64,000 nt of DNA from Escherichia phage vB_EcoM_Lh1B: sequence record OK428535.1. One strand, written 5' to 3'. A program made the translations under genes and the position numbers. Below are positions 6,219-53,876 of this stretch, piece after piece; positions within the stretch are counted from its first letter, which is position 1; every line of letters begins with the position of its first letter. The notes under the pieces are model-generated. The model was not told the origin of the DNA and did not search any database. It saw nothing but the letters and a program-made list of their open reading frames with translations.

Positions 6219-6836
6219 ATGACCCTATCAACTCAGGAGGTTATCGTGGTCGATCGTTGGAGTAAAGAGGGCATTATTCGTGCCAAAGTAAACATCGAAG
6301 CCGGTTACGTTAATAACCCGAAAGATTTGGGCAAAGCAACGAACCGCGGTGTCACCGAACTCACTGCGCGAGAATATGGCTATAAAGGGGATATGCGTGA
6401 CCTGAGCTTAGAAATCGCGTTAGACATTTACAACAAGCTCTGGTGGCAGCGGATGCGTTTAGACCAGATTATGAAAATGAATGTCCTGCTAGCTGACCGA
6501 ATGTTTGATTTCGGCATCAACGCAGGACGCGGTAACTGTATCAAGTCCCTGCAACGTATTCTGAACGTATTAAACCGCCAGGGTAAACTATACGATGATA
6601 TCGATGCCGATGGTGGTATCGGGCCACGTACGTTAACAGCGTTAGAAGGCTTCATCAAAGCCCGTGGGGAAGAGGGCCTGAATCGACTGATGTTCGCTTT
6701 AACCTGTCATCAGGTTGCGTATTACACGGAAATCAGTGAAGGGCGTGAGGATAACGAAGAGTTTACTTACGGCTGGTATGGCCGCGTCTATCAGGAAATG
6801 CCAGACTACGTGGCTAAGTTGGGGATGTGCAAATGA
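6219..6836 (+). CDS. endolysin: GH108-type N-acetylmuramidase with PG_binding_3 domain
   Basis: N-terminal EAGYVNNPKDLGKATNRGVTE matches the GH108 EGGYvnDP..GG.T..GIT signature; C-terminal DADGGIGPRTLTAL matches the PG_binding_3 DG.iGp.T..AL motif; no signal peptide or TM segment. Confidence 0.8.
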   Translation: MTLSTQEVIVVDRWSKEGIIRAKVNIEAGYVNNPKDLGKATNRGVTELTAREYGYKGDMRDLSLEIALDIYNKLWWQRMRLDQIMKMNVLLADRMFDFGINAGRGNCIKSLQRILNVLNRQGKLYDDIDADGGIGPRTLTALEGFIKARGEEGLNRLMFALTCHQVAYYTEISEGREDNEEFTYGWYGRVYQEMPDYVAKLGMCK

Positions 6837-8416: not shown

Positions 8417-8908
8417 TTATTTATTTTCTTCTAACGGAACAATCGTAATCGGAGTAGGAACTTCACCGATAAACCCGCTGCTGCAGCGAAAGAATGTCAT
8501 CCCTTTACCTTCGCCGGTATACGGGTTCACATCCGAAAAAGAATAAGTGGGGCTATCGTTTACGGTTTTATTAATACGGTAATAACGCTCACCTGTGGTG
8601 GTGTTAACATTCCCGTCGATTTTGCCGATCACGTCTTTAAACATCATCGGTGACTCTAGTTTGCCACCGTCCCACGCTGCTACCCAGTTTGCACCCACAT
8701 CCATTACTGTTACTGACCGCGGCATCATTTGTAGGTTGTCCAGTACCGGACGGTAGTCTACAAACTTCTCCTGCGTCCCTGTGCATGTATAAATCACCAA
8801 GTCGTGATTCTTTACTGGTGTGGCGCTAAATTGTCCTATGTTGCTTGGCGACTGAACACAACCGGCCAACAGGTTTATAATCGCGAATACGATAAATAGA
8901 CGTTTCAT
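8417..8908 (-). CDS. lipoprotein (possible superinfection-exclusion or receptor-masking protein)
   Basis: Signal peptide with lipobox MKRLFIVFAIINLLAGC; AGGA RBS. Confidence 0.65.
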   Translation of the reverse strand: MKRLFIVFAIINLLAGCVQSPSNIGQFSATPVKNHDLVIYTCTGTQEKFVDYRPVLDNLQMMPRSVTVMDVGANWVAAWDGGKLESPMMFKDVIGKIDGNVNTTTGERYYRINKTVNDSPTYSFSDVNPYTGEGKGMTFFRCSSGFIGEVPTPITIVPLEENK

Positions 8909-36356: not shown

Positions 36357-36758
36357 ATGACTATCAAGAAGTTCTTACAAGCAGTAGTAGTTCTGGCCGC
36401 ATGTGGTATTGCAGCAACTTATGCTTTCGATAAGCCAGACGTGACTGAATACACATCAGCTGATTCGGATTATGGCATTGCACCGAATGAAAAACCGGAA
36501 CTGATGCGTGAGGTCGAACAGTTACAAATCTACAGACTGACGGACGGTAAGAACTGCACAGGGCTGGTTATCGCTGATAAGAAATTGAAAATGTATCAGC
36601 GGTTAATCGACATATCGTGCAATCAACCAAAAGTCACCTCGGTCAGTGTATCGCCACTGGAATTACCGAATTTGGTTGCTGTGAGCTTTTATCACAACGA
36701 TGTGCTCGTCGGTCGCATCACCCTCAATCGTGGAGATATCAAAAATGAAATGCAATAA
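36357..36758 (+). CDS. putative lipoprotein / secreted protein
   Basis: Signal peptide MTIKKFLQAVVVLAACG with lipobox-like LAAC. Confidence 0.55.
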   Translation: MTIKKFLQAVVVLAACGIAATYAFDKPDVTEYTSADSDYGIAPNEKPELMREVEQLQIYRLTDGKNCTGLVIADKKLKMYQRLIDISCNQPKVTSVSVSPLELPNLVAVSFYHNDVLVGRITLNRGDIKNEMQ

Positions 36759-37236
36759 CGTCAATCGCCNCTTGGCCAAAGTGGTGCTTTTTACTGTGCT
36801 GTTGATGGCAGTTGTTGTTGGGCTACGGATTTCTAAGGCACGCGCTGACGAATTCAGCGGGTTCCAGGGCAGTATTAACGGCAGCATTCCAGCATATACC
36901 CGCACCATCAATCTTAATGATAAGCCGTTCTGGTGCAATGCGCGTAAGCTGCTTAAGAAACAGTGTCGTGTAGTTGACATATCCTTCAACGGTCGTGTCG
37001 CTATCGTACACCGTCCTGGCGATAAAGATTGCCCAGGTGGTTGGTGGGGTGCAGTCGACCGTCACAATGGTGACGCGTTATGGCTTATCCCTAATCGTGA
37101 TGAACTATCAGTGGAGAAAATTTGCAGCAAAGATTTCAGGGCCGGTTTTGTACAGCGACCGGATACCAAAACTCTGGCCTCCATCGCTATGTACTACGGT
37201 ATGGAAACCATCAAAACAATCGACTATTCAGAATAA
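36745..37236 (+). CDS. secreted Cys-containing protein (paralog family member A)
   Basis: ATG at 36745 with GGAGA RBS; signal peptide; PFWC-x-C motif shared with 37259-37669. Confidence 0.55.
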   Translation: MKCNNVNRXLAKVVLFTVLLMAVVVGLRISKARADEFSGFQGSINGSIPAYTRTINLNDKPFWCNARKLLKKQCRVVDISFNGRVAIVHRPGDKDCPGGWWGAVDRHNGDALWLIPNRDELSVEKICSKDFRAGFVQRPDTKTLASIAMYYGMETIKTIDYSE

Positions 37237-37258
37237 CTCAAAAAATTGAGGTACTATT

Positions 37259-37669
37259 ATGAAACATTTTTTATTACCAGTTTTACTTGCTACTCTGGCC
37301 ATTAGCTTCTTCGCTCGCGCTGGAAGTATCGAGTTACCAAAAGTTGTTAACGATCACGAATACGGCGGGCCGTTCTGGTGCCAGAACTCTGACGTACAAG
37401 GCGGTAGCTGTCAGATCGTTGCGATGTCCGATAACAACCGTTACCTGTTAGTGAAAACGATGGGCGGTGTCGCATGTGGCGACCCTGAATACGGGGTTAT
37501 TAACATGGCAACAGGTCAGGCCGAATCCATGAACTACAATGATAACCAAGCCTGCAGTGGTGAAGCCGTTGCTGAGTTTACTCGCGACCCAGGTGATAAT
37601 GCCCTGACGGTTATCATGTACGACCCTACGATTAAGAAAAACGTGGGCATCAATAAACTCGACTTTTAA
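37259..37669 (+). CDS. secreted Cys-containing protein (paralog family member B)
   Basis: Signal peptide MKHFLLPVLLATLAISFFARA; GGPFWCQNSDVQGGSC motif. Confidence 0.6.
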   Translation: MKHFLLPVLLATLAISFFARAGSIELPKVVNDHEYGGPFWCQNSDVQGGSCQIVAMSDNNRYLLVKTMGGVACGDPEYGVINMATGQAESMNYNDNQACSGEAVAEFTRDPGDNALTVIMYDPTIKKNVGINKLDF

Positions 37670-37682
37670 GTAAGGAAACAAC

Positions 37683-38066
37683 ATGCGTGGACTTATGGGT
37701 ATTATCGCGGCGGTGTTCTTGACCGCTTCTGCTTCAGCTACAACCAGCGTAGAAGATTTACTGCCAGGCACACCGTATCAGTACAACCCGCCTTCATTCG
37801 AAGTCTGTACTGGCGACAATGGCAGATGTGAAGAAGTCAGCCGTCACGACGAGTATATCCTGGTCCACGCAAAGGGCGAGGAAACTTGTCCGGCTGGTTA
37901 CTACTTCTTGTTGAACTCAAAGGCACAAGAGATTGTGCCGGTAGAGACAATAACGTGCGACCCGACGCTTCGCGCGTCGCTCGCTTACAATACGAAAACC
38001 AAACAACGCCTCCTGGTTATTGAACAGCAAGGGGTGGTGCGTGGTTCAGTAGCGCTCGACCAGTAA
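37683..38066 (+). CDS. secreted Cys-containing protein (paralog family member C)
   Basis: Signal peptide MRGLMGIIAAVFLTASASA; similar Cys spacing (C.GDNGRC...C). Confidence 0.6.
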   Translation: MRGLMGIIAAVFLTASASATTSVEDLLPGTPYQYNPPSFEVCTGDNGRCEEVSRHDEYILVHAKGEETCPAGYYFLLNSKAQEIVPVETITCDPTLRASLAYNTKTKQRLLVIEQQGVVRGSVALDQ

Positions 38067-39473: not shown

Positions 39474-41984
39474 ATGCACAAGGTCGAACGTATCATTTTN
39501 AAAGNNTTTACCGGCATGGGGTTACATGAAANNNAAANNTTTGATTTCACCCTTAANTCAACCGTTACCANCATCCTCGGTGGCAACGGCTGCGGTAAAA
39601 CAAGCCTCCTGTCTGTTTTTCTCCCCTTAGCTCCAGCAAAATCAGAATTCCGTGAAGGTGGTTCCTACACTAACTACGCGTTAGTTGGGGACGACCGTCT
39701 TAAGTTTGAAGTCCTGCGTCGTGGCTCTTCTCTGTCTTGTAGTATTTTCAATATCACTAAAGGTGTCTCCATCGTAGACTCGGTAAACGCCAAAGTTTAC
39801 AACTCCATGGTGGAGCAATTAACCGGAATCACCAAAGAAATCAAAGAGTTAATTAATGGTGAGACCTTATTAACTGACGCCACTACCGAAGTTCGTCGTA
39901 AATGGTTTACGTTAATGTCAGAATCTGATCTGACGTACGTTGTTGGTTGCTATCGACGTTTGCGTAAACTCGCTTCCAGTTTAAGTGGGGCCATTGAGCA
40001 CACCGGCCGTAAAATCGGTGAGGCAAAAATGCGCGTGGTGGACGATGAAGAAGATCGTGCACGTTTAGAAGTTCGTTTGAAAGAACTCGATGCTGAGCTT
40101 CAGGAATTAAACCGCACAATTGAAGCGAGACCCGGTTTAGATAACGCCGTTTCGGTTGATAGTATCCGGAAACGCATTGCTTCGTTGCAACCGGCTGTAA
40201 AACTCATTATGGAACGTTATGGCGTTCTGCCTTCTGACGAACTGATTAACGAGTTTCAAAGTCGTGTGGTTGCCTGGCGTGAGCAAGCTGCCTCTGCTGA
40301 AACTGAATGCAACATGTACAATAAAGAGTTGTCACAGCTACTGGATGAGGAGTCGCGTCAAGCGTATCTGATGCGCAACCATACCGGTCTAAAACAAACA
40401 ATCGACAGCTTAAAACAGGAACTGGCAACGTTCCAACAGAACTGGATGTTCCCGGCTCTGTTTGAAGGTACCCGCATTGATGTGGATAGCATTCAGAACG
40501 CGTTAAACGATGCCTGTAACTGGAATTTACCGTTGTCCATGCATCTGGACCAGTTAAAGACAACAGATCGCCTGGGAGCGTTAGAGAAGCGTTTACAGGG
40601 TATGGATTTAACCTCTGCGGGTCTATCTGAAAAGCTGCAACGTTGTGAGAATGTGCTACACGGTTTATACCACGACCGTCAACACTTCTTAGAAACTGCA
40701 GAAGTTGATTGTCCACAGTGTAACCACCGTTTCCGTCCTGGGATTCGTAAGTCGTTACCTGAAATTGAAAAGGCCATCAACGATAATGAAGGTTGGAAGA
40801 AGCAGCTGAAAGACGAAATGGATAGTCTTTTGCGTGACCGCAAAGAGATTGAAGAGGACGTCCGTAGCTTACGTACGATTCGCGAAATCGTCATGTCGTA
40901 TTCCAACCATCCTGTTGTCGGTTTGTTTTTCCGTAAACTGCAGGAGCTGGATATCTTCACCACGGCGCGGGATCGTTACGGTGCCATTGCACGTGCCTTT
41001 ACTGAAGAGCTAGATTCGGCCATGATGTATCTGCGTCAATCGGCGAAGCTTGCAACAGCGGAACGGGAATGGCAAGAGGCTGTTGCCGCAGTAGGTAACG
41101 TTGATGGTGCGCTGAGCCAGAAAATTGAACATATCCGTTCACAACTGGACGGGGCTAACCGTCGACTGATAGAATACCGCAGACAAGCCAATGAGCTGGA
41201 ACGCGAAACCACCCAACTGCAACAAACCAAAGAAGCAATCGAACGTTTCCAAAAAGGCTACGAACATCTGGTATCGGAAATGAACATCTCCGTTAACAAC
41301 GTCGTGGTTCGTGAGTTGTTAAACCGACGCGAAGCGAAGCTCGATGCGTATACTTCAGCTCGTGAACGGTTTCGTCAAATGGAAGGGGCTATTGCACGTT
41401 TAGCGGAATTGGAAAAAGAGCAAGCTGAGTTGCTCAAAGAACACCATCNNGNCNGATTGATTATCAATGCCGTCTCACCCGAAAAAGGATTATTGCGTCG
41501 TTACTTTTATGCTGCGATTACCCGCATCATGGATTTAATGAATCGGTATATCGAAATGGTGTGGGCATATCCGATGCAGGTTATTCCATGCGATCTAACC
41601 GACGGGGATTTGGATTATACTTTCCCGGTGCGATTAAAAGACCATGAAGAACTGGTGCCGGATGTGAAGAAAGGTTCGAAGGCACAGCGTATTATCTTTA
41701 ACATGATGTTTCGTTTAACGGCGTATAAAGCGCTTGGTTTACAAAACTATCCTTTGTTNTTNGATNAANCCNCNNAAGGCATGGATGAANAACANAAAAA
41801 NCGCCTGGTCAACTTCTTTAAATCGTTGGNGTTGTTGGGGGAGTTTTCTNAANTGCTGGTCGTTTCGCATGAAGCGGAAGTTCATTCTAAACTTAACGAA
41901 GCCACCTACTGTGTCGTGGAGCCAGAAGGTGTAACGCTTCCACCGGTTTATAACGAAGGGGTAATAATCAAATATGCATCATAA
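39474..41984 (+). CDS. SbcC/Rad50-like recombination ATPase
   Basis: N-terminal Walker A ILGGNGCGKTSLL; very long central coiled coil with central CPQC zinc-hook-like motif; C-terminal Walker B/D-loop (..GMDE..) and LVVSHEAEV H-loop. Confidence 0.75.
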   Translation: MHKVERIIXKXFTGMGLHEXXXFDFTLXSTVTXILGGNGCGKTSLLSVFLPLAPAKSEFREGGSYTNYALVGDDRLKFEVLRRGSSLSCSIFNITKGVSIVDSVNAKVYNSMVEQLTGITKEIKELINGETLLTDATTEVRRKWFTLMSESDLTYVVGCYRRLRKLASSLSGAIEHTGRKIGEAKMRVVDDEEDRARLEVRLKELDAELQELNRTIEARPGLDNAVSVDSIRKRIASLQPAVKLIMERYGVLPSDELINEFQSRVVAWREQAASAETECNMYNKELSQLLDEESRQAYLMRNHTGLKQTIDSLKQELATFQQNWMFPALFEGTRIDVDSIQNALNDACNWNLPLSMHLDQLKTTDRLGALEKRLQGMDLTSAGLSEKLQRCENVLHGLYHDRQHFLETAEVDCPQCNHRFRPGIRKSLPEIEKAINDNEGWKKQLKDEMDSLLRDRKEIEEDVRSLRTIREIVMSYSNHPVVGLFFRKLQELDIFTTARDRYGAIARAFTEELDSAMMYLRQSAKLATAEREWQEAVAAVGNVDGALSQKIEHIRSQLDGANRRLIEYRRQANELERETTQLQQTKEAIERFQKGYEHLVSEMNISVNNVVVRELLNRREAKLDAYTSARERFRQMEGAIARLAELEKEQAELLKEHHXXXLIINAVSPEKGLLRRYFYAAITRIMDLMNRYIEMVWAYPMQVIPCDLTDGDLDYTFPVRLKDHEELVPDVKKGSKAQRIIFNMMFRLTAYKALGLQNYPLXXDXXXXGMDEXXKXRLVNFFKSLXLLGEFSXXLVVSHEAEVHSKLNEATYCVVEPEGVTLPPVYNEGVIIKYAS

Positions 41985-45635: not shown

Positions 45636-46358
45636 ATGTTTCNCACCATTTTATTTCTTCTGGTAGCAGTGACCACATTCAACAGCAACGCTTCTTACCA
45701 GACCACCAGTAACAAACACCAAAAAGAATTCGTCCTTATCCAGGACCAGTTCAATGAGATTAAACCTCTCATCGTCACCGCATCTCGAAAACAAGGCGTA
45801 CATGCCGGGATGCTCGCGACCACCATTTATCGTGAATCCCGTTTTAATAAAAACGTGGGTAAGAATAAATCGAGCAGTGCTAGTAGTGTTGTCCAAATGA
45901 CGACAGGCACTAAACGCTCCATGATACGTCTGTATGGGAAACAACTTAACATCCCAAAGAATGCGGACCTTAATAAACCGAAGTATGCTGTACAGCTTGC
46001 TGCCGTTTACATGAAACACATCGAGGATCATCTGACAAAACAACTCAAACGCAAGCCGAGCACAGCCGAAATCGCTTTAGGCTATCGCTTCGGTGAGGGT
46101 GCCGCTGTTGCGATGATTAAAAAGAAATCACCGGTCGGGAAACGCTGGATGGCNNGCNACNGAAAAGACGCAGCATTCTACGGTGCGAAAATGACACCAC
46201 CGAAAGNTGAAANACNNCNGNTTNNNTTTGNGNAGGNAGNCCANGNCCAACGNGTCGCCGAACTTCAGAAAATCTGGGATACGCTGTACACCAAAATATC
46301 ACCTGCGGCCGGTACATTACTGGCAAATAACACTATCATGAAAGGAGCATTGCTATGA
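45636..46358 (+). CDS. SLT-domain lytic transglycosylase-like protein with N-terminal signal peptide
   Basis: Hydrophobic N-terminus; YRESRFNKNVG...SSASSVVQMTTGT...YAVQLAAVYMKH...ALGYRFGEG matches the ES / Q-M / AYN-G motif order of SLT domains; n-rich C-terminal part. Confidence 0.5.
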   Translation: MFXTILFLLVAVTTFNSNASYQTTSNKHQKEFVLIQDQFNEIKPLIVTASRKQGVHAGMLATTIYRESRFNKNVGKNKSSSASSVVQMTTGTKRSMIRLYGKQLNIPKNADLNKPKYAVQLAAVYMKHIEDHLTKQLKRKPSTAEIALGYRFGEGAAVAMIKKKSPVGKRWMXXXXKDAAFYGAKMTPPKXEXXXXXFXXXXXXQXVAELQKIWDTLYTKISPAAGTLLANNTIMKGALL

Positions 46359-46948
46359 CACTCGTAACACGCCCCTGGTATCCAGGTCTTAAAACAGCCG
46401 NACAAATCACCGCCAAAGACGTTTACGAACTGATTCGCGCGGGTGCGGAACACGTTCAAACCAATCCGAACTACGTTGAGCGTCCTATCGGTGAAGTCGA
46501 TGGGGAAGCTGTCGAAGCACCTGTCTACGTTGAGTACGGCGAATGGTTCGCAGAGAACCACGGTTTCTACGACGCGTTAAACGCGGCGTTTGGTGATGAC
46601 GAAGACGAAGGTATCGAATTCGACTGGAACGTTAATCTGGCGCTGATGTGGATTTGTGGTTTACGTCCAGCAATTAACGAAACCGAAGCAGGCTTCGTGC
46701 TGACGTGGCGACAGTCGGCGGGTTACGATAAAGAACTCGACTTCAAACAGGCGTATATGGATGTGTCGATTGCACTGCAGAAACTGTTCTTCGGCGATCG
46801 TGCTTTCTGCCAGCTCAGCTGGTTGACCATCCTGGAAAAACTGGCAACGTGCCACAAACTGTGGCGAGCAGAAGATGCCCCAGAACATCTTTTCGTGCTC
46901 GAATATGCAGTGGTACCGAACCAGCCGTTCTTTGAGGCCGAAGCGTAA
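46355..46948 (+). CDS. hypothetical protein
   Basis: 197-aa ORF, ATGA overlap with the upstream gene. Confidence 0.55.
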   Translation: MTLVTRPWYPGLKTAXQITAKDVYELIRAGAEHVQTNPNYVERPIGEVDGEAVEAPVYVEYGEWFAENHGFYDALNAAFGDDEDEGIEFDWNVNLALMWICGLRPAINETEAGFVLTWRQSAGYDKELDFKQAYMDVSIALQKLFFGDRAFCQLSWLTILEKLATCHKLWRAEDAPEHLFVLEYAVVPNQPFFEAEA

Positions 46949-46999: not shown

Positions 47000-47266
47000 G
47001 TGTTCGTGAAACGTTTAATAAATATTCTCTACTGGATGGAGAAACGCTATAGCCACAACATTCCGATGATGTATAGTTTGTTATTCTCTACGGTAATGTT
47101 GGTGATCGGTGCGATTGTCGCGCATCTGATGGAACTCACGTCTCCATGGGCGCAACTCTTTCTTACCATCTGGATGTTGTTCTCAGGCTACCACATACGT
47201 GGTTTCATAACCCGATTCTTTCGCTGGCGTAGTACCTGGCACGTCTTTAATTCCGACCGTAACTAG
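47000..47266 (+). CDS. small membrane protein (GTG start)
   Basis: 88 aa with two hydrophobic segments; start codon GTG. Confidence 0.45.
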   Translation: MFVKRLINILYWMEKRYSHNIPMMYSLLFSTVMLVIGAIVAHLMELTSPWAQLFLTIWMLFSGYHIRGFITRFFRWRSTWHVFNSDRN

Positions 47267-49151: not shown

Positions 49152-50531
49152 TTAGGCTTCTGGCTCTGCCNCAGGGACATCCCAAACAGCTTTGCGGGCC
49201 AAGACACGATACTCCACGTTATCGAATTCGAAGACGTAGAAGTAAACGTTAGGATCGACGTCGTCTACGAGCTTCACGATATCCAGCGGGGTGGAATGTG
49301 GGTGATACTCTTCCGCTGCGATTAACGCCTGGAAGAACAAGTCCAGCCACTCGGTGGTTTTCTTCGACATTCTCGCAATATCTGCATTGTTAGTGCCGAT
49401 TAATGCGTAGTCGGGAATCGTATCATGCAGGGTCGTTTTGCGTGAATCGTTTTCAGGGCCCGCGATAACTACAGCGTTTAGTGATTTATAGATGGACGGT
49501 AAATCCGTTACATCGGTAGTTGGAGTTGAGATTGCTCCACTATTTTTTTCCGTAATGGTTTGAACAGTCCACTCCCCAAATCGGGAGATTGCTTTGACCC
49601 AGAAATCATATGGGAGAATCGGCGAGTATAATGCCGCAACGTCTTCCTCATTTGGAANCCCACNAATTGACCAACCGGGAACAATTGTGAANTTGGNGGT
49701 CGTAAANATTTCTGGGAACACCTTGACACCCAACGCCACAGNAAAACTGGNGTTTNCCAAAATGTAATCACNNAACNCTTGTTTAATCCTGNTCGGGTTA
49801 CGACCCGCGCGTCCGTAGATGATAGCCGACATCGGTATCGGTAAGGTGGAATCAAAGTCTTCCTGGTCGTGCCAAGTATAGATGTTAGTAATCAGGCTAG
49901 TGTACGGATAACCGTCAGCTAATTCGTTAATCTTATTATGGTGATCCGGAAGGTTGAACCCTTCCATTGCCTTTTCGACTACAGATTTCACAGCCAAGAA
50001 AGTATCAACCGGTAATATCGGCATTTGGACTTCAATTTCAAATCCGGTATAGTCCTGATTGAAATCTTCATCAGCAAACCAGAGAATAATCTGGTTATTC
50101 ACATCAGATGGGTCTTCGACTTTATCTGCTGTGGTTTCAAGTTTCCAACTGACCCAACGTGGGAACCAGTTACTGTTAGTCTGAATCATCGCGCCAGACT
50201 GAACACCGCTGATGACACTATTAAATTGCCCCAACAGCAAACGCTGGAATTCAACTTCGTCGTTTCTTAAGTTGCCCAGGATAGACTGTTGGTAGATCCA
50301 TTGGGAAACAGTAAGAACGTGGTCGCTAAAGACGGCCGGGGTCTTAATAGGCAACTCGTCACGTTTAGAAGTAAAAGCAACCAGTTCCACCTGCAGATTT
50401 TCTTTAGTAAAATACTGCTTGCTTTTAGCGAACGAATATGACAGCTCAGACAACTCACCTACCGGAGCGGTGTTGCCAGGGCCATTATCAATCAGAGCCG
50501 CTATTTGAATAAAGCCTTGTAAATCATACAT
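49152..50531 (-). CDS. hypothetical protein (possibly structural)
   Basis: 459-aa ORF; contains n-run. Confidence 0.6.
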   Translation of the reverse strand: MYDLQGFIQIAALIDNGPGNTAPVGELSELSYSFAKSKQYFTKENLQVELVAFTSKRDELPIKTPAVFSDHVLTVSQWIYQQSILGNLRNDEVEFQRLLLGQFNSVISGVQSGAMIQTNSNWFPRWVSWKLETTADKVEDPSDVNNQIILWFADEDFNQDYTGFEIEVQMPILPVDTFLAVKSVVEKAMEGFNLPDHHNKINELADGYPYTSLITNIYTWHDQEDFDSTLPIPMSAIIYGRAGRNPXRIKQXXXDYILXNXSFXVALGVKVFPEXFTTXXFTIVPGWSIXGXPNEEDVAALYSPILPYDFWVKAISRFGEWTVQTITEKNSGAISTPTTDVTDLPSIYKSLNAVVIAGPENDSRKTTLHDTIPDYALIGTNNADIARMSKKTTEWLDLFFQALIAAEEYHPHSTPLDIVKLVDDVDPNVYFYVFEFDNVEYRVLARKAVWDVPXAEPEA

Positions 50532-50549
50532 AATTAAAAACTCTCCGAG

Positions 50550-51065
50550 GTGAGCATGATAGCATCAGTTTTCAAACTGCTTCCATTCTTACAAATGCTG
50601 TGGGAAGCATTTAAACCGGGCGAGGGGGAGAAAGTAACACGAGCCGGGAAAATAGTGACACTAGTGATAGTGGCACTGATCGCGTTCTCTGCATTTGTCT
50701 CATACGCCTACATTGTTCAATACCACACACTGGTTAGCGTTCAATCGCGTACTCAGTATCTGGAGATATCCTATAAGGAGCTAAAAGAGAAGTCCGATCA
50801 TGGCGAAGTGGAGAACAATAAGTTGTACGATCGTCTCTTCACGTGCCTGGGTTCTCGACCGCCATATGATGGTACCAAATCTCCAACAGGAACAGGCACT
50901 GAGGCCGCGGTTCCGCCTGTANAAANCAANCCNGTAANNCCNCCGGCNCCGTTNAATCCNTCTANCCCNCCNNCCAAGAAATACCNGGCCNCTTCTCNCC
51001 CGGTAGGGTCGCAGGAGGCAAATGATTTCCGACAGGAGATTATCAGTACGCTTAATAATCCATGA
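50550..51065 (+). CDS. membrane protein with periplasmic coiled coil (i-spanin candidate)
   Basis: TM segment IVTLVIVALIAFSAFVSYAYIV followed by charged helical region (ISYKELKEKSDHGEVENNKLYDRL); n-rich C-terminus. Confidence 0.4.
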   Translation: MSMIASVFKLLPFLQMLWEAFKPGEGEKVTRAGKIVTLVIVALIAFSAFVSYAYIVQYHTLVSVQSRTQYLEISYKELKEKSDHGEVENNKLYDRLFTCLGSRPPYDGTKSPTGTGTEAAVPPVXXXXVXXPXPXNXSXXXXKKYXAXSXPVGSQEANDFRQEIISTLNNP

Positions 51066-51074
51066 GGAGCATAC

Positions 51075-51554
51075 ATGAAGTTATTTTTGGTGGCGATACT
51101 GGTGCTATTGTTGACAGGATGCCCTGGAGCCATCCGTCACGTAGACCCAGATTACTCCTCAACCGGAGATTGGCCTTTTCGTCCTTTAGAACACCCACCA
51201 GTTTATGCTGGTGGGAACAGTCCTGAGGCGAAAAAGCTGGCAGGGAAAATGTTTGTTGCGGATGTGAACGCTTATGCTTATTACGTTTATCTGTACGCTA
51301 AGTCGTTGAACAATTACGCAGAAGCTAAGGGGTGGCGCACCCCGATGGCCGCACCGCTTTGTGAAGAGTTTATTCGCCCCACTCTTCATGATATACCCTC
51401 CGGGATATATCTCGACCCTGGTTCTCGTAGCCCTCAAGACATTAGTCGTGATTTGTCACGACAGATTAAGTCNCTCATTCGCAGCTATCGCGAAGACAGA
51501 GAGTCTTTTAATCATGCCTACGAACGGCACAAAAGTAGTTGCCTTGTGCAATGA
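51075..51554 (+). CDS. lipoprotein (o-spanin candidate)
   Basis: MKLFLVAILVLLLTGC lipobox immediately downstream of the membrane protein. Confidence 0.55.
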   Translation: MKLFLVAILVLLLTGCPGAIRHVDPDYSSTGDWPFRPLEHPPVYAGGNSPEAKKLAGKMFVADVNAYAYYVYLYAKSLNNYAEAKGWRTPMAAPLCEEFIRPTLHDIPSGIYLDPGSRSPQDISRDLSRQIKXLIRSYREDRESFNHAYERHKSSCLVQ

Positions 51555-51560
51555 AAACTC

Positions 51561-51597
51561 CCTCTTACCTTCGGGTAAGAGGGGATTTCCTTTTTTA
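51561..51597 (+). terminator. rho-independent terminator
   Basis: CCTCTTACC-ttcg-GGTAAGAGG hairpin followed by a T-run. Confidence 0.6.
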
Positions 51598-51614
51598 NNT
51601 TAATANTCAATANT

Positions 51615-51629
51615 GTGATATATAATCTC
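51615..51629 (+). promoter_or_regulatory. recurring intergenic motif (candidate promoter element)
   Basis: GTGATATATAATCTC upstream of the exonuclease gene. Confidence 0.25.
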
Positions 51630-51642
51630 NTGGNGAGTTGAA

Positions 51643-52362: not shown

Positions 52363-53876
52363 TGAAAGACGTCGACGTAGCGGTTATTTATACCGATGGT
52401 AGTCATACTGAGTCCCCGAAAGGTTCGGGGGCTGGTATTCATGGTTATTTATTCAACAACGGAGATTTGGAAGACAGTCAGGCTTATAGCCATCCGGGTG
52501 TTTCANAANGGATTACCACTGTTGGATANAAAAAAGNGCCGCAGGNTGNGAAGTGTCCGGNGTTGCCGGACACCGTTNAATTTNTNGACGCCGTTNTTCC
52601 CGTTCCNAAANAGTTNTNCNCAGATGTGGGNGNGTTAATCNCCTTCATCACGTTNTTTGAGAACGCGCCCTTCCGCGCGAAGAACTATATCATCTACGTG
52701 GATGCCAGTTACGTTGTAAACACTTTTAACGAGTGGATAGACGGCTGGCATAAACGTGGTTGGGTTCGTGCTGACGGTACTCCGCTGGCGAACAAAGAAC
52801 TTATTGTTCGTATCTGGGAAATCAAACAGCAGATGAAAAAAGAAGGACGGGGTGTTAAGGTTATCAAAATCAAAGGACACTCCGGCCACTACGGTAACGA
52901 CCGGGCGGACGAATTGGCTAGAAAAGGTTCAGCCATCACAGCGACCAACGACGGCGTTCCATATCAGCCGTACTGGTCGAAGGATGAGTTGCCTGCATCC
53001 GCGGAACCCGAGCCCATCGCCGCTGGGATGAACCTTGCGGCATATCCGCCTATTTGTACGGTTAAATATTGCTATCCGTTGGTGAACGAGGACCATCCTA
53101 CTGTAAAAGTGAAAGATGAAACTTTCTATTACATGTTTGGTGGCAACCATGCAAAGAACAAGGACGACTTGGTGTTTATTGGGAAAATGATTCCTGATGC
53201 ACACTTTTCCGTAATGTTCACTAAACAACCGTGGGATAACATCTACACGATTGTAAATACCCACGCCGCCCTGGCATGGAAAGATACACCGAAGATGCGG
53301 CAGTATGATCCAATCGGTGTTGTTAACAATGAGTTCGTTAAACGTAAGAAGTTCGTTGATGTGGCAGGTGATGGATTACCGGCAGACAAGATGCATTTCA
53401 GTGGAGAAGATTCCAATGTCTGGTTCTTTGAAGACCTGGCCATCTCCAGAATGCTTCGCCCGCCCTTATTGTCGTACCGTGCGCTGGATATTCGTGATGA
53501 ACTCGCTACAACGTTGCGAGATGTTCTGCATCAGGAAAAGGGTTACGTCTTAAACGACATTACCGACTTGCTATTCGACGACAAAGGTAAACCTGTCAAG
53601 GAATACTACCGTAGCGTCGATAAGTCAATAACGTTAAAGATTGACTTTCCGATGGGTAAACGACCTGTCTCGGTTATTTTGACTCGCGGTATCGATATTC
53701 CATCACGTACGGAAATCAACCGTATTAAAGAACCCGAAGGCCGTTATTACATCGCGGTGTGTCGTCCTGAAAAATACTACATCCGTTACTTCTTAATCTA
53801 TATCGGTAAAGAGTATCATGGGTTGTGGTGTGCGTATTACGCAAACCGTCGCATACTGCGAGAAGAAGAGGTGTAA
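52362..53876 (+). CDS. RNase H-domain protein with about 300-aa C-terminal extension
   Basis: IYTDGS ... NEWIDGWHKRGW ... KGHSGHYGNDRADELARKG match the RNase HI catalytic signature; ATGA overlap with the exonuclease stop; n-run inside the domain. Confidence 0.6.
   Translation: MKDVDVAVIYTDGSHTESPKGSGAGIHGYLFNNGDLEDSQAYSHPGVSXXITTVGXKKXPQXXKCPXLPDTVXFXDAVXPVXKXXXXDVXXLIXFITXFENAPFRAKNYIIYVDASYVVNTFNEWIDGWHKRGWVRADGTPLANKELIVRIWEIKQQMKKEGRGVKVIKIKGHSGHYGNDRADELARKGSAITATNDGVPYQPYWSKDELPASAEPEPIAAGMNLAAYPPICTVKYCYPLVNEDHPTVKVKDETFYYMFGGNHAKNKDDLVFIGKMIPDAHFSVMFTKQPWDNIYTIVNTHAALAWKDTPKMRQYDPIGVVNNEFVKRKKFVDVAGDGLPADKMHFSGEDSNVWFFEDLAISRMLRPPLLSYRALDIRDELATTLRDVLHQEKGYVLNDITDLLFDDKGKPVKEYYRSVDKSITLKIDFPMGKRPVSVILTRGIDIPSRTEINRIKEPEGRYYIAVCRPEKYYIRYFLIYIGKEYHGLWCAYYANRRILREEEV

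Follow-up and report, generated by a model that had tools for sequence, protein, structure and literature searches.

In the embedded two-component spanin of phage lambda, a canonical one, Rz contains two long coiled-coil helices without an extended proline-rich spacer, and its partner Rz1 has a mature part of 40 aa that is proline-rich and unstructured; the T4 pair PseT.3/PseT.2, likewise canonical, has a separated gene arrangement. Lambda Rz/Rz1 and T4 PseT.3/PseT.2 share with the gene pair analysed here an inner-membrane-anchored helical protein, an outer-membrane lipoprotein, periplasmic cysteines and the i-then-o gene order. When the descriptions of Rz/Rz1 and of this pair are compared, the proline-rich element is found here on the inner-membrane partner, and the mature lipoprotein has 143 aa and is partly folded.

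In phiKZ, amber defects in lambda Rz/Rz1 are complemented by the overlapped spanins gp141 and gp141.1 (Manohar et al. 2026, PMC12894885). This pair, from a phage of the same family, also combines a type II membrane protein with a downstream outer-membrane lipoprotein, whose mature part is rather long at about 100 aa, and its locus adjoins the genes of the holin (gp142), the regulator (gp143) and the endolysin (gp144); however, no sequence similarity to the present pair was detectable, and the phiKZ genes overlap whereas those described here are separated. The Cronobacter proteins CR5_183 and CR5_184 are included as a separated i-spanin/o-spanin pair in SpaninDB (Kongari et al. 2018, PMC6139136), an assignment that is bioinformatic only. 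They are direct homologues of the pair: in tblastn the membrane proteins are about 40% identical, and the lipoproteins 33% in their C-terminal part. The gene order is identical, the gap is 10 nt instead of 9 nt, the proteins have 171 and 148 aa, which the comparison took as the same lengths as those of the pair, and the neighbouring genes, for a virion protein, an exonuclease and an RNase H, agree as well. SPN3US was absent among the SpaninDB supplementary entries listed.

The window, that is the whole stretch of 64,000 nucleotides analysed, is from an SPN3US-like Salmonella jumbo phage of the Chimalliviridae. Its + strand carries the gene of an inner-membrane protein, the candidate i-spanin (50556..51065, 169 aa; SPN3US gp204/ACQ60_gp062; PHROG 8719), followed by a lipoprotein gene, the candidate o-spanin (51075..51554, 159 aa; SPN3US gp205/ACQ60_gp061; PHROG 8165). 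Both proteins are annotated as 'hypothetical' in all GenBank and RefSeq records. The sequence-only reading had described an N-terminal TM helix protein, then a lipoprotein with an LTGC lipobox and then a terminator, and all three elements have been confirmed on this strand. The analysis gives about an even chance that the pair is a bridge between the inner and outer membranes, conserved among nucleus-forming phages, which SPN3US-type phages most likely use as their spanin.

The first-listed form of ORF1 (50550-51065) starts with a GTG that falls within the Shine-Dalgarno sequence GAGGTGAG of the membrane-protein gene (50547..50554, +), as read from the sequence, and the start is likely the ATG at 50556, which yields the protein of 169 aa. 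The equivalent start is used by the SPLA1a annotation and by SpaninDB for CR5, and the SpaninDB entry for the CR5 homologue marks an identical GAGG as Shine-Dalgarno (PMC6139136), while the RefSeq start of SPN3US gp204 at Met14 removes the conserved N-terminal motif. Both genes are on the same strand with an intergenic gap of 9 nt. The Shine-Dalgarno GAGGAG of the lipoprotein gene, also read directly (51064..51069, +), overlaps the ORF1 stop codon, so that translational coupling is likely. A strong intrinsic terminator (51559..51594, +) closes this two-gene unit, a small operon; its 11-bp stem is capped by a TTCG loop (51559-51584) and followed by a T tract, and the genes for the exonuclease and RNase H lie beyond it.

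The genes are adjacent, with the coupled Shine-Dalgarno/stop arrangement, in the same 72 enterobacterial-clade phage records, and dN/dS values of 0.11-0.26 were obtained for the pair wherever synonymous sites were unsaturated, revealing purifying selection. The n-rich C-terminus previously attributed to the membrane protein corresponds to 17 ambiguous bases (N) in ORF1, between 50923 and 50999, and is no property of the protein, the matching region being clean in SPN3US and SPLA1a. These ambiguous bases are the one point in favour of considering one or both ORFs as chance ORFs or annotation artefacts, a reading of negligible probability since the pair is conserved in Salmonella phages as well as in those of Pseudomonas and Ralstonia, shows the low dN/dS values mentioned above, has good Shine-Dalgarno sequences and a terminator, and has phiKZ counterparts for which transcripts exist. 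On the basis of conservation and dN/dS, the proposal that these are not real genes was rejected.

An N-terminal cytoplasmic amphipathic helix with the motif (L/W)PFL (residues 3-18; 50562..50609, +) was identified in the membrane protein by AF2 and alignment. Pro10 is the sole invariant residue across all clades (18 sequences) and L12 is nearly invariant. About 30 conserved cytoplasmic residues precede the TM domain, which is atypical for an i-spanin; the long disordered spacer described below is equally unusual among Rz/Rz1-like spanins. The single TM helix, IVTLVIVALIAFSAFVSYAYIVQ, located by sequence and AF2, covers approximately residues 33-55 (50652..50720, +), and the basic loop KPGEGEKVTRAGK ahead of it suggests, according to the positive-inside rule, a type II topology with the N-terminus in the cytoplasm and the C-terminus outside (N-in/C-out). 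AF2 predicts one unbroken helix from residue 29 to 98, with pLDDT values of 82-92 at residues 31-60. The periplasmic part of this alpha-helix (residues 56-98, 43 residues; 50721..50849, +) has near its end Cys97 (FTCLG), which is conserved throughout the enterobacterial clade. A TonB-like, Pro-rich spacer that AF2 predicts as disordered comes next (residues 99-152, 54 residues; 50850..51011, +); it shows pLDDT below 50 at residues 104-151 and contains the 17 N bases. The protein finishes with an amphipathic helix, ANDFRQEIISTLN, also predicted by AF2 (residues 153-167; 51012..51056, +), so the model has two periplasmic helices, 56-98 and 153-167, with 54 of about 113 periplasmic residues Pro-rich and disordered. 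For the CR5 i-spanin, SpaninDB gives a helix content of 30% and predicts one coiled coil, at residues 66-99, which are equivalent to the periplasmic helix here (PMC6139136). The C-terminal helix is conserved in the clades bearing the lipoprotein and is missing from the lipoprotein-less Goslar and Xoo-sp14, and it has been proposed here as the contact site for the lipoprotein.

The lipoprotein starts with the signal peptide MKLFLVAILVLLLTG ahead of the lipobox cysteine (LLTG/C; 51075..51122, +, from the sequence). The lipobox Cys16 corresponds to codon 51120-51122, and outer-membrane sorting is predicted because the +2 residue is Pro and not Asp. Cys16 is invariant in 16 family members, and no member has Asp at +2. 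The mature protein of 143 aa is partly folded, with three predicted helices. Its residues 17-49 (51123..51221, +) form a flexible tether without secondary structure in the AF2 model, with pLDDT below 50 at residues 18-33 and of 52-61 on to residue 50. The tether is followed by a long helix containing VNAYAYYVYLYAKSLNNYA (residues 50-84; 51222..51326, +; AF2, pLDDT about 70) that is specific to the enterobacterial clade, the Pseudomonas and Ralstonia members being without an aligned counterpart. A conserved C-terminal module (residues 96-156; 51360..51542, +) was delimited by alignment, AF2 and hhalign. It comprises a Cys96-x5-Pro102-x5-Pro108 loop and a helical hairpin reaching Cys156, with C96, P108 and C156 invariant, P102 nearly so, and pLDDT values of 88-95; it is probably held by a Cys96-Cys156 disulfide.

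A profile search with the lipoprotein retrieved 57 proteins, whose named sources are all jumbo phages and the remainder metagenome contigs. A Foldseek search with the lipoprotein model found nothing in the PDB and only family members in BFVD; an annotated o-spanin scored E 4.6. The PDB sequence profile search gave matches at signal-peptide level only (to lipoproteins such as RcsF and T5 Llp, E 0.2-0.3, not significant). Together with the existence of relatives that have the TM protein and no lipoprotein, these matches would favour two proteins that act separately, the lipoprotein alone having, for example, a receptor-blocking or lytic-conversion role of the kind known from T5 Llp or Cor, while the job of the membrane protein is unrelated and their adjacency is due to shared transcription only. 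This is improbable, because adjacency and the coupled Shine-Dalgarno/stop were found in 72 of the 72 enterobacterial-clade records and the order is the same in the phages covered from the Pseudomonas and Ralstonia clades, the C-terminal helix of the TM protein co-varies with the presence of the lipoprotein, and nothing like Llp or Cor was found beyond the signal peptide.

The earlier proposal of a separated i-spanin/o-spanin pair is supported in part. It is in agreement with the architecture, a type II inner-membrane protein encoded directly before an outer-membrane-sorted lipoprotein, both with conserved periplasmic cysteines, as in most two-component spanins (PMC6139136). A six-frame lipobox scan considering all starts revealed that this is the sole TM-then-lipoprotein pair in the 240-kb genome of SPN3US; as further credible lipoproteins the same scan gave gp107 and possibly gp086, neither of which has a TM partner or a C-terminal TMD. 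The 143-aa lipoprotein departs from the Rz1-like o-spanin profile, which is short, proline-rich and mostly unstructured. However, SpaninDB accepts o-spanins with periplasmic lengths of 134 (CR5), 148 (Ea35-70) and 132 (OBP), so that shortness is a typical and not a defining feature. No sequence or fold likeness to any validated spanin was found with PHROGs, Pfam, tblastn or Foldseek against the PDB and BFVD, and searches in Pfam, PHROGs, NCBIfam and PADLOC only yielded the unknown-function PHROGs 8719 and 8165 together with sub-threshold noise, for example FtsH_ext and PhrA.

The phiKZ-type spanin genes have been lost from the SPN3US clade. No tblastn match to phiKZ gp141, gp141.1, gp142 or gp143 was obtained in the window or in the whole SPN3US genome, and SPN3US gp181, a homologue of phiKZ gp140, is followed 2 nt later by a holin-like protein gene, leaving no room for spanin genes; the equivalence between SPN3US gp180 and holin gp142 (E 0.22) is by position and topology only. 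In the SPN3US clade the bridge is most likely the spanin because of this loss and because there is no other candidate.

Synteny and profile comparisons identify phiKZ gp156.1/gp156 as the orthologues of the two genes. The phiKZ gp157 sequence matches the window at 49185-50531 on the - strand (tblastn, E 7e-50) and that of gp155 at 52374-53840 on the + strand (tblastn, E 4e-32), and in the 14 phages examined the pair lies between a divergent gp157-like virion protein gene and a gp155-like RNase H gene. For the lipoprotein, hhalign between the enterobacterial and Pseudomonas subfamilies gave a probability of 95.8% (E 8e-9, 63 columns, residues 96-158), and a single profile retrieves both subfamilies. 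Direct pairwise and profile comparisons of the TM protein with phiKZ gp156.1 were not significant; the link is transitive, from enteric to Ralstonia-type proteins (91.2%, E 1e-6) and from these to the Pseudomonas gp156.1-type (95.8%, E 7.5e-9), and it emerged only with deeper subfamily alignments, through the Ralstonia-type proteins. phiKZ gp156.1/gp156, PhiPA3 gp180/179 and 201phi2-1 gp242/241 share the locus, the topology and the N-terminal PFL motif, and all the Pseudomonas- and Ralstonia-clade phages examined have the two genes in this order. However, the Pseudomonas TM proteins have just 93-99 aa and are without the Pro-rich spacer and the C-terminal helix, a low-complexity linker replaces the 50-84 helix in the Pseudomonas lipoproteins, and the Pseudomonas pair leads straight into the RNase H gene with no annotated exonuclease gene between. 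A gp156.1 homologue without the lipoprotein is found at the locus in Xoo-sp14 and, on weaker homology evidence, in Goslar; the TM/coiled-coil protein that Agricanvirus has there corresponds by position only.

This orthology, together with the coexistence of the pair with proven spanins, speaks against the separated-spanin proposal. Since gp141/141.1 and gp156.1/gp156 are both present in phiKZ, they are different systems. In Ralstonia FLC4-5C, the slot corresponding to the phiKZ cassette contains i-spanin-like, o-spanin-like and holin-like genes, of which gp95 is equated with gp141.1 by position and topology only (E 0.03), and this phiKZ-like spanin/holin cassette is present together with an intact gp156.1/gp156-type pair (gp60/gp59). 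The idea that the pair decays where another spanin exists, and survives intact only as the sole candidate, was rejected on this whole genome. According to SpaninDB, 201phi2-1 also has a separate spanin beside its gp242/241 pair. Because the pair coexists with gp141/141.1 and with the FLC4-5C cassette, its ancestral role was probably not that of sole spanin. Considering in addition the lipoprotein-less relatives and the lack of similarity to validated spanins, function is not assignable from architecture alone.

As the main rival reading, it is possible, if on the doubtful side, that the pair is a conserved envelope-bridging or envelope-acting module of nucleus-forming jumbo phages that is not a spanin, the SPN3US-like phages having no two-component spanin at all and breaching the outer membrane otherwise; possible roles would include the sensing or regulation of lysis timing, superinfection exclusion, or the membrane anchoring of an assembly or infection step. 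The orthology to gp156.1/gp156 points in this direction, as do the two deep clades in which the pair occurs beside a validated or phiKZ-like spanin, the relatives with the TM protein alone (Xoo-sp14 and, less firmly, Goslar) and the conserved cytoplasmic N-terminal motif with its invariant Pro10, which i-spanins do not need. About 13% of the phages of Gram-negative hosts are without a recognisable spanin. The phiKZ pair is transcribed together with the RNase H-like gp155 (and gp154), which is not a lysis cassette; gp155 is needed for nucleus maturation, and its expression is high at 20 min. In the trimmed TnSeq table for phiKZ, gp156.1/gp156 and gp141/141.1 have zero or one insertion, and the zero counts for the pair, alongside those of the essential-looking gp141/141.1, also argue for a non-spanin role. 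Such low counts, within that table, would be unexpected for redundant spanins, although they could be explained by polarity on gp155. Against a non-spanin role, no direct support was obtained for any specific other function, no matches were found in PADLOC, NCBIfam, Pfam or the PDB, the pair is still intact in the SPN3US clade that lost the phiKZ-type spanins, and experts chose the CR5 pair as a spanin in SpaninDB. For SPN3US gp204/gp205 and phiKZ gp156/156.1, the literature contained no functional data beyond the co-transcription and the TnSeq counts.

It is quite possible, though short of an even chance, that gp156.1/gp156-type pairs are a hitherto unrecognised envelope module distinct from the spanin, which only in the SPN3US clade has been mistaken for a spanin or co-opted as one. 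Such a module of nucleus-forming jumbo phages may link the inner and outer membranes, serve an envelope function of its own, occur across much of the family and, as far as the trimmed TnSeq table indicates, possibly be essential.

Under the preferred reading of the pair as a bridge used as spanin in the SPN3US clade, the first product would be anchored in the inner membrane, N-in/C-out, and would project into the periplasm a helix of about 6 nm carrying a single cysteine, then a Pro-rich spacer with a possible reach of about 15 nm, and a short terminal helix. The second product would receive its lipid at Cys16 and, after sorting, sit in the inner leaflet of the outer membrane, with its helical domain on a flexible tether. 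Binding of the terminal helix of the membrane protein to the lipoprotein module would then form a bridge threading the peptidoglycan, and once the peptidoglycan is degraded the complexes would be freed and collapse, disrupting or fusing the outer membrane as the last step of lysis.

If the pair is a spanin, two 'hypothetical' genes could be named in about 70 jumbo phages of Salmonella, Erwinia and Cronobacter, among them several candidates for therapy or biocontrol. The TM-then-lipoprotein rule, the usual architectural basis for spanin calls, selects in one clade a pair that in sister clades occurs beside proven spanins. According to one interpretation, nucleus-forming phages would ancestrally have had two envelope-spanning systems that are mutually replaceable; according to another, the CR5 call in SpaninDB would be a false positive and the outer membrane would be opened by some other route.

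The pair had also been described as distant from the endolysin. This is correct for the GH108 endolysin (6219-6836), located about 44 kb away, but an SLT transglycosylase (45636-46358) homologous to the phiKZ endolysin gp144 lies 4.2 kb upstream of the pair. This enzyme is SPN3US gp198, named 'putative endolysin' in the original record, and together with a small membrane protein (one or two hydrophobic segments) it is found 3-4 kb upstream of the pair. If the pair is a spanin, the lysis genes of SPN3US-type phages would be scattered over several loci.

The membrane protein resembles TonB in having an N-terminal anchor, a Pro-rich spacer and a small C-terminal element for an outer-membrane partner, an architectural analogy only; it differs in showing no homology in Pfam or NCBIfam, no TonB C-terminal domain and no ExbB/ExbD partners. 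One of the Ralstonia-type homologues carries the automatic JGI name 'TonB'.

The proposed pair consists of a transmembrane (TM) protein gene (ORF1, 50556-51065, + strand, 169 aa) and a lipoprotein gene (ORF2, 51075-51554, + strand, 159 aa), which are separated by 9 nt, with the Shine-Dalgarno sequence of ORF2 overlapping the ORF1 stop codon, and are followed by a terminator with an 11-bp stem (51559-51584). The 1.5 kb around the pair shares 96-98% identity with SPN3US and related Salmonella jumbo phages (genus Seoulvirus). ORF1 and ORF2 correspond to SPN3US gp204 and gp205 in the original numbering (ACQ60_gp062 and ACQ60_gp061 in RefSeq). Both products are labelled as hypothetical proteins in all records; they were assigned to PHROG 8719 and 8165, respectively, neither with an assigned function, and no Pfam family was found for either. 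Adjacent homologues of both genes are present in the same 72 phage records (hosts Salmonella, Erwinia, Cronobacter, Proteus and Escherichia), and dN/dS values of 0.11-0.26 for both genes, considering only comparisons with unsaturated synonymous sites, indicate purifying selection. The membrane protein, downstream lipoprotein and terminator described in the sequence-only reading were confirmed. In the SPFM records LR535901, LR535904, LR535906-LR535908, LR535911-LR535913 and LR535917 (SPFM1, 7, 8, 9, 10, 12, 14, 15 and 20 in GenBank), the pair locus is matched in 3-7 short pieces only, and deposited proteins (e.g. P0127, P0135-P0137) resemble block-wise rearrangements of the ORF1/ORF2 products, which suggests assembly or sequence-order artefacts.

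The most likely start of ORF1 is the ATG at 50556; the GTG at 50550 falls within the Shine-Dalgarno sequence GAGGTGAG. The start annotated for SPN3US gp204 (ACQ60_gp062) in RefSeq and GenBank is an internal methionine, residue 14 (position 6296 versus 6257 in the SPN3US stretch L001), so that the (L/W)PFL motif conserved at the N-terminus is lost. SPLA1a and, for phage CR5, SpaninDB use the upstream ATG, which has a good Shine-Dalgarno sequence. The AF2 model of ORF1, built from 29 homologues, includes an N-terminal amphipathic helix (residues 3-18), a continuous helix (residues 29-98) beginning with the hydrophobic TM segment (about 33-55), a Pro-rich disordered stretch (residues 99-152) and a terminal helix (residues 153-167). 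The "n-rich" C-terminus previously ascribed to ORF1 turned out to be 17 ambiguous bases (50923-50999), in a region where the SPN3US and SPLA1a sequences are clean. Scattered single Ns are clustered in patches within otherwise well-conserved genes of the window (50923-50999, 51474, 51590-51635 and many more, e.g. 49200-49800 and 52500-52640), giving X residues in several ORFs; masking or a consensus of variable positions are possible origins.

The N-terminus of ORF2 is MKLFLVAILVLLLTG|C, with Pro at position +2. Its AF2 model (54 sequences, mean pLDDT 73.6) displays a flexible tether (residues 17-49), a long helix (residues 50-84) and a confident C-terminal module (residues 96-156, pLDDT 88-95), and 16/16 members of the lipoprotein family share the lipobox Cys as well as Cys96, Pro108 and Cys156. 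One product of the pair is an inner-membrane anchor extended by a helix of 43 residues, a Pro-rich spacer of 54 residues and the terminal helix; the other is a lipoprotein, predicted to be sorted to the outer membrane, which has a tether and a conserved module with two cysteines. Both products would form an inner-to-outer membrane bridge, with a joint reach that simple geometry places far above the 20-25 nm of the periplasm. The C-terminal helix of the TM protein is conserved in clades with the lipoprotein and missing in clades without it, a correlation that points to this helix as the lipoprotein contact site, by analogy with the C-terminal Rz-Rz1 contact.

This architecture is the one by which two-component spanins are called, and a published precedent, purely bioinformatic, exists: the CR5 genes 168815-169330 and 169340-169786, catalogued as a separated i-spanin/o-spanin pair in the SpaninDB supplementary tables (Kongari et al. 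2018), are exactly the CR5 tblastn homologues of ORF1 and ORF2. The whole SPN3US genome was assembled and scanned for lipoboxes (six frames, all start codons, strict and relaxed pattern), and the only credible lipoproteins were gp205, the lone beta-rich gp107 (8417-8908, - strand, 163 aa, LLAG|C, PHROG 9559 with no assigned function) and possibly gp086. The gp107 gene lies 1.6 kb from, and on the opposite strand to, gp110 (6219-6836, +), a RefSeq "endolysin" with Glyco_hydro_108 and PG_binding_3 domains that is a second muralytic enzyme located amid tail genes. The gp086 gene belongs to a cluster of four small proteins (gp086-gp083, 36357-38066, +, 127-163 aa). All four contain several cysteines and carry a signal peptide or a lipobox-like sequence at the N-terminus, none (0/4) has a Pfam match, and they appear to be a family of proteins secreted to the periplasm. 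Since neither an upstream TM partner nor a C-terminal TMD was found for gp107 or gp086, gp204/gp205 is the sole spanin-like candidate in the SPN3US genome.

Complementation of lambda Rz-am Rz1-am was obtained with gp141/gp141.1, the validated spanins of phiKZ (Manohar et al. 2026, PMC12894885), whose cassette also encodes the holin gp142, the regulator gp143 and the endolysin gp144. No similarity of the window pair to these spanins was found. The pair occupies instead the position of phiKZ gp156.1 (96 aa, with amphipathic N-terminus, TM and helix) and gp156 (lipobox LISG|C), which are flanked by gp157 (virion protein) and gp155 (RNase H-like); these two flanking genes match the window at 49185-50531 (- strand, E 7e-50) and 52374-53840 (E 4e-32), respectively. 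The same arrangement is present in PhiPA3, 201phi2-1, Phabio, Psa21, PS119XW, Noxifer, CR5, Asesino, Caitlin, Wellington, Phobos, STsAS and Ralstonia phage FLC4-5C. In a profile-profile comparison, enterobacterial and Pseudomonas lipoproteins matched across the C-terminal module with 95.8% probability (E 8e-9). Direct comparisons of enterobacterial and phiKZ-type TM proteins yielded no significant match, and the link is transitive, through deeper subfamily alignments from database search: enteric versus Ralstonia/Burkholderia-type family, 91.2% (E 1e-6), and the latter versus the Pseudomonas gp156.1 type, 95.8% (E 7.5e-9). On locus and homology of both partners, the window pair is orthologous to gp156.1/gp156 and not to the validated spanins.

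The idea that the gp156-type pair is intact only where another spanin is absent failed when the entire FLC4-5C genome was scanned. In this phage the pair is intact (gp60, 165 aa and including a Pro-rich spacer, and lipoprotein gp59), and three genes "hypothetical" in the record (90184-91891, - strand; 40184-41891 in stretch L027) are found downstream of the gp140 homologue gp97 (E 4e-15). They encode the TM protein gp96, the lipoprotein gp95 (LSG|C), which contains a PPPP motif and whose gene overlaps gp96 by 4 bp, and gp94, with an acidic N-terminus and a TM segment. Together they resemble an i-spanin/o-spanin/holin cassette of phiKZ type that has escaped annotation. Phage 201phi2-1 has a separate spanin too (ORF226, SpaninDB). 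As both systems occur together in two deep clades, both are probably ancestral. At the SPN3US locus outside the window (84325-86286; 35325-37283 in L018), gp180 (190 aa, PHROG 8722, with about 100 soluble N-terminal residues and two TMDs) starts 2 nt after the gp140 homologue gp181. The likeness of gp180 to the holin gp142, and of gp179 (212 aa, PHROG 8034) to the regulator gp143, is one of position and topology alone. Spanin genes are absent between gp181 and gp180, the slot before the holin in phiKZ, so phiKZ-type spanins are missing from the SPN3US clade. At the RNase H locus of Xoo-sp14, Goslar and Deimos-Minion a TM/coiled-coil protein is encoded, with no lipoprotein gene before RNase H. 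Xoo-sp14 gp153 (183 aa, 3001-3552 in L015) is a well-supported gp156.1 homologue (96.2% with the Pseudomonas type); Goslar gp247 (183 aa, 2093-2644 in L023), whose C-terminal end contains the segment YYVCNSL...QRNQC, matches more weakly (57% to the Ralstonia and 42% to the Pseudomonas type), and for the Deimos-Minion (Agricanvirus) protein the missing N-terminal motif leaves homology uncertain.

The spanin assignment of the sequence-only reading therefore holds in part: the architecture, the sole candidacy in SPN3US and the CR5 precedent speak for it, but the orthologues gp156.1/gp156 coexist with proven phiKZ spanins. With phiKZ-type spanins lost and no other candidate, a bridge acting as spanin in the SPN3US clade is the single most likely function, with a roughly even chance of being correct. 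A bridge with a conserved non-spanin envelope role, to which that coexistence would correspond, is nearly as likely, somewhat short of even. In phiKZ, gp154, gp156 and gp156.1 are co-transcribed with gp155, a gene required for maturation of the nucleus whose expression is high at 20 min (Gerovac et al. 2025). Trimmed phiKZ TnSeq data contain 0 insertions in gp156 and gp156.1 and 1 each in gp141 and gp141.1, with raw counts of 5 sites/23 reads for gp156 and 6 sites/4631 reads for gp156.1; since its authors documented polar artefacts at the neighbouring orf157 (Chan et al. 2025), essentiality of gp156.1/gp156 is suggestive and not established.

As a spanin candidate, the pair joins the SpaninDB family of bioinformatic calls exemplified by CR5; membership in any validated spanin family was not found by sequence or fold. 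No paper combining phiKZ with gp156 was found in the searchable literature, nor any discussion of the orthology or of the coexistence with proven spanins, and the sole paper naming PHIKZ156 mentions it just as co-transcribed with gp155. The gene call is ordinary, and it raises a concrete, cheaply testable question on how spanins are called, together with that of a conserved envelope module in nucleus-forming phages.

A lysis cluster of SAR-endolysin/pinholin type may lie 3-4 kb upstream of the pair. It would include the SLT-domain transglycosylase corresponding to the "putative endolysin" SPN3US gp198 (45636-46358, +), homologous to the catalytic part of phiKZ gp144, an acidic 197-aa protein (46355-46948, +, PHROG 8114) and an 86-aa protein (47006-47266, +) that has a further hydrophobic stretch besides its one scored TM segment. 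In gp198 the peptidoglycan-binding domain of gp144 is replaced by the N-terminal hydrophobic segment MFxTILFLLVAVTTFNSNAS, reminiscent of a signal or SAR sequence.
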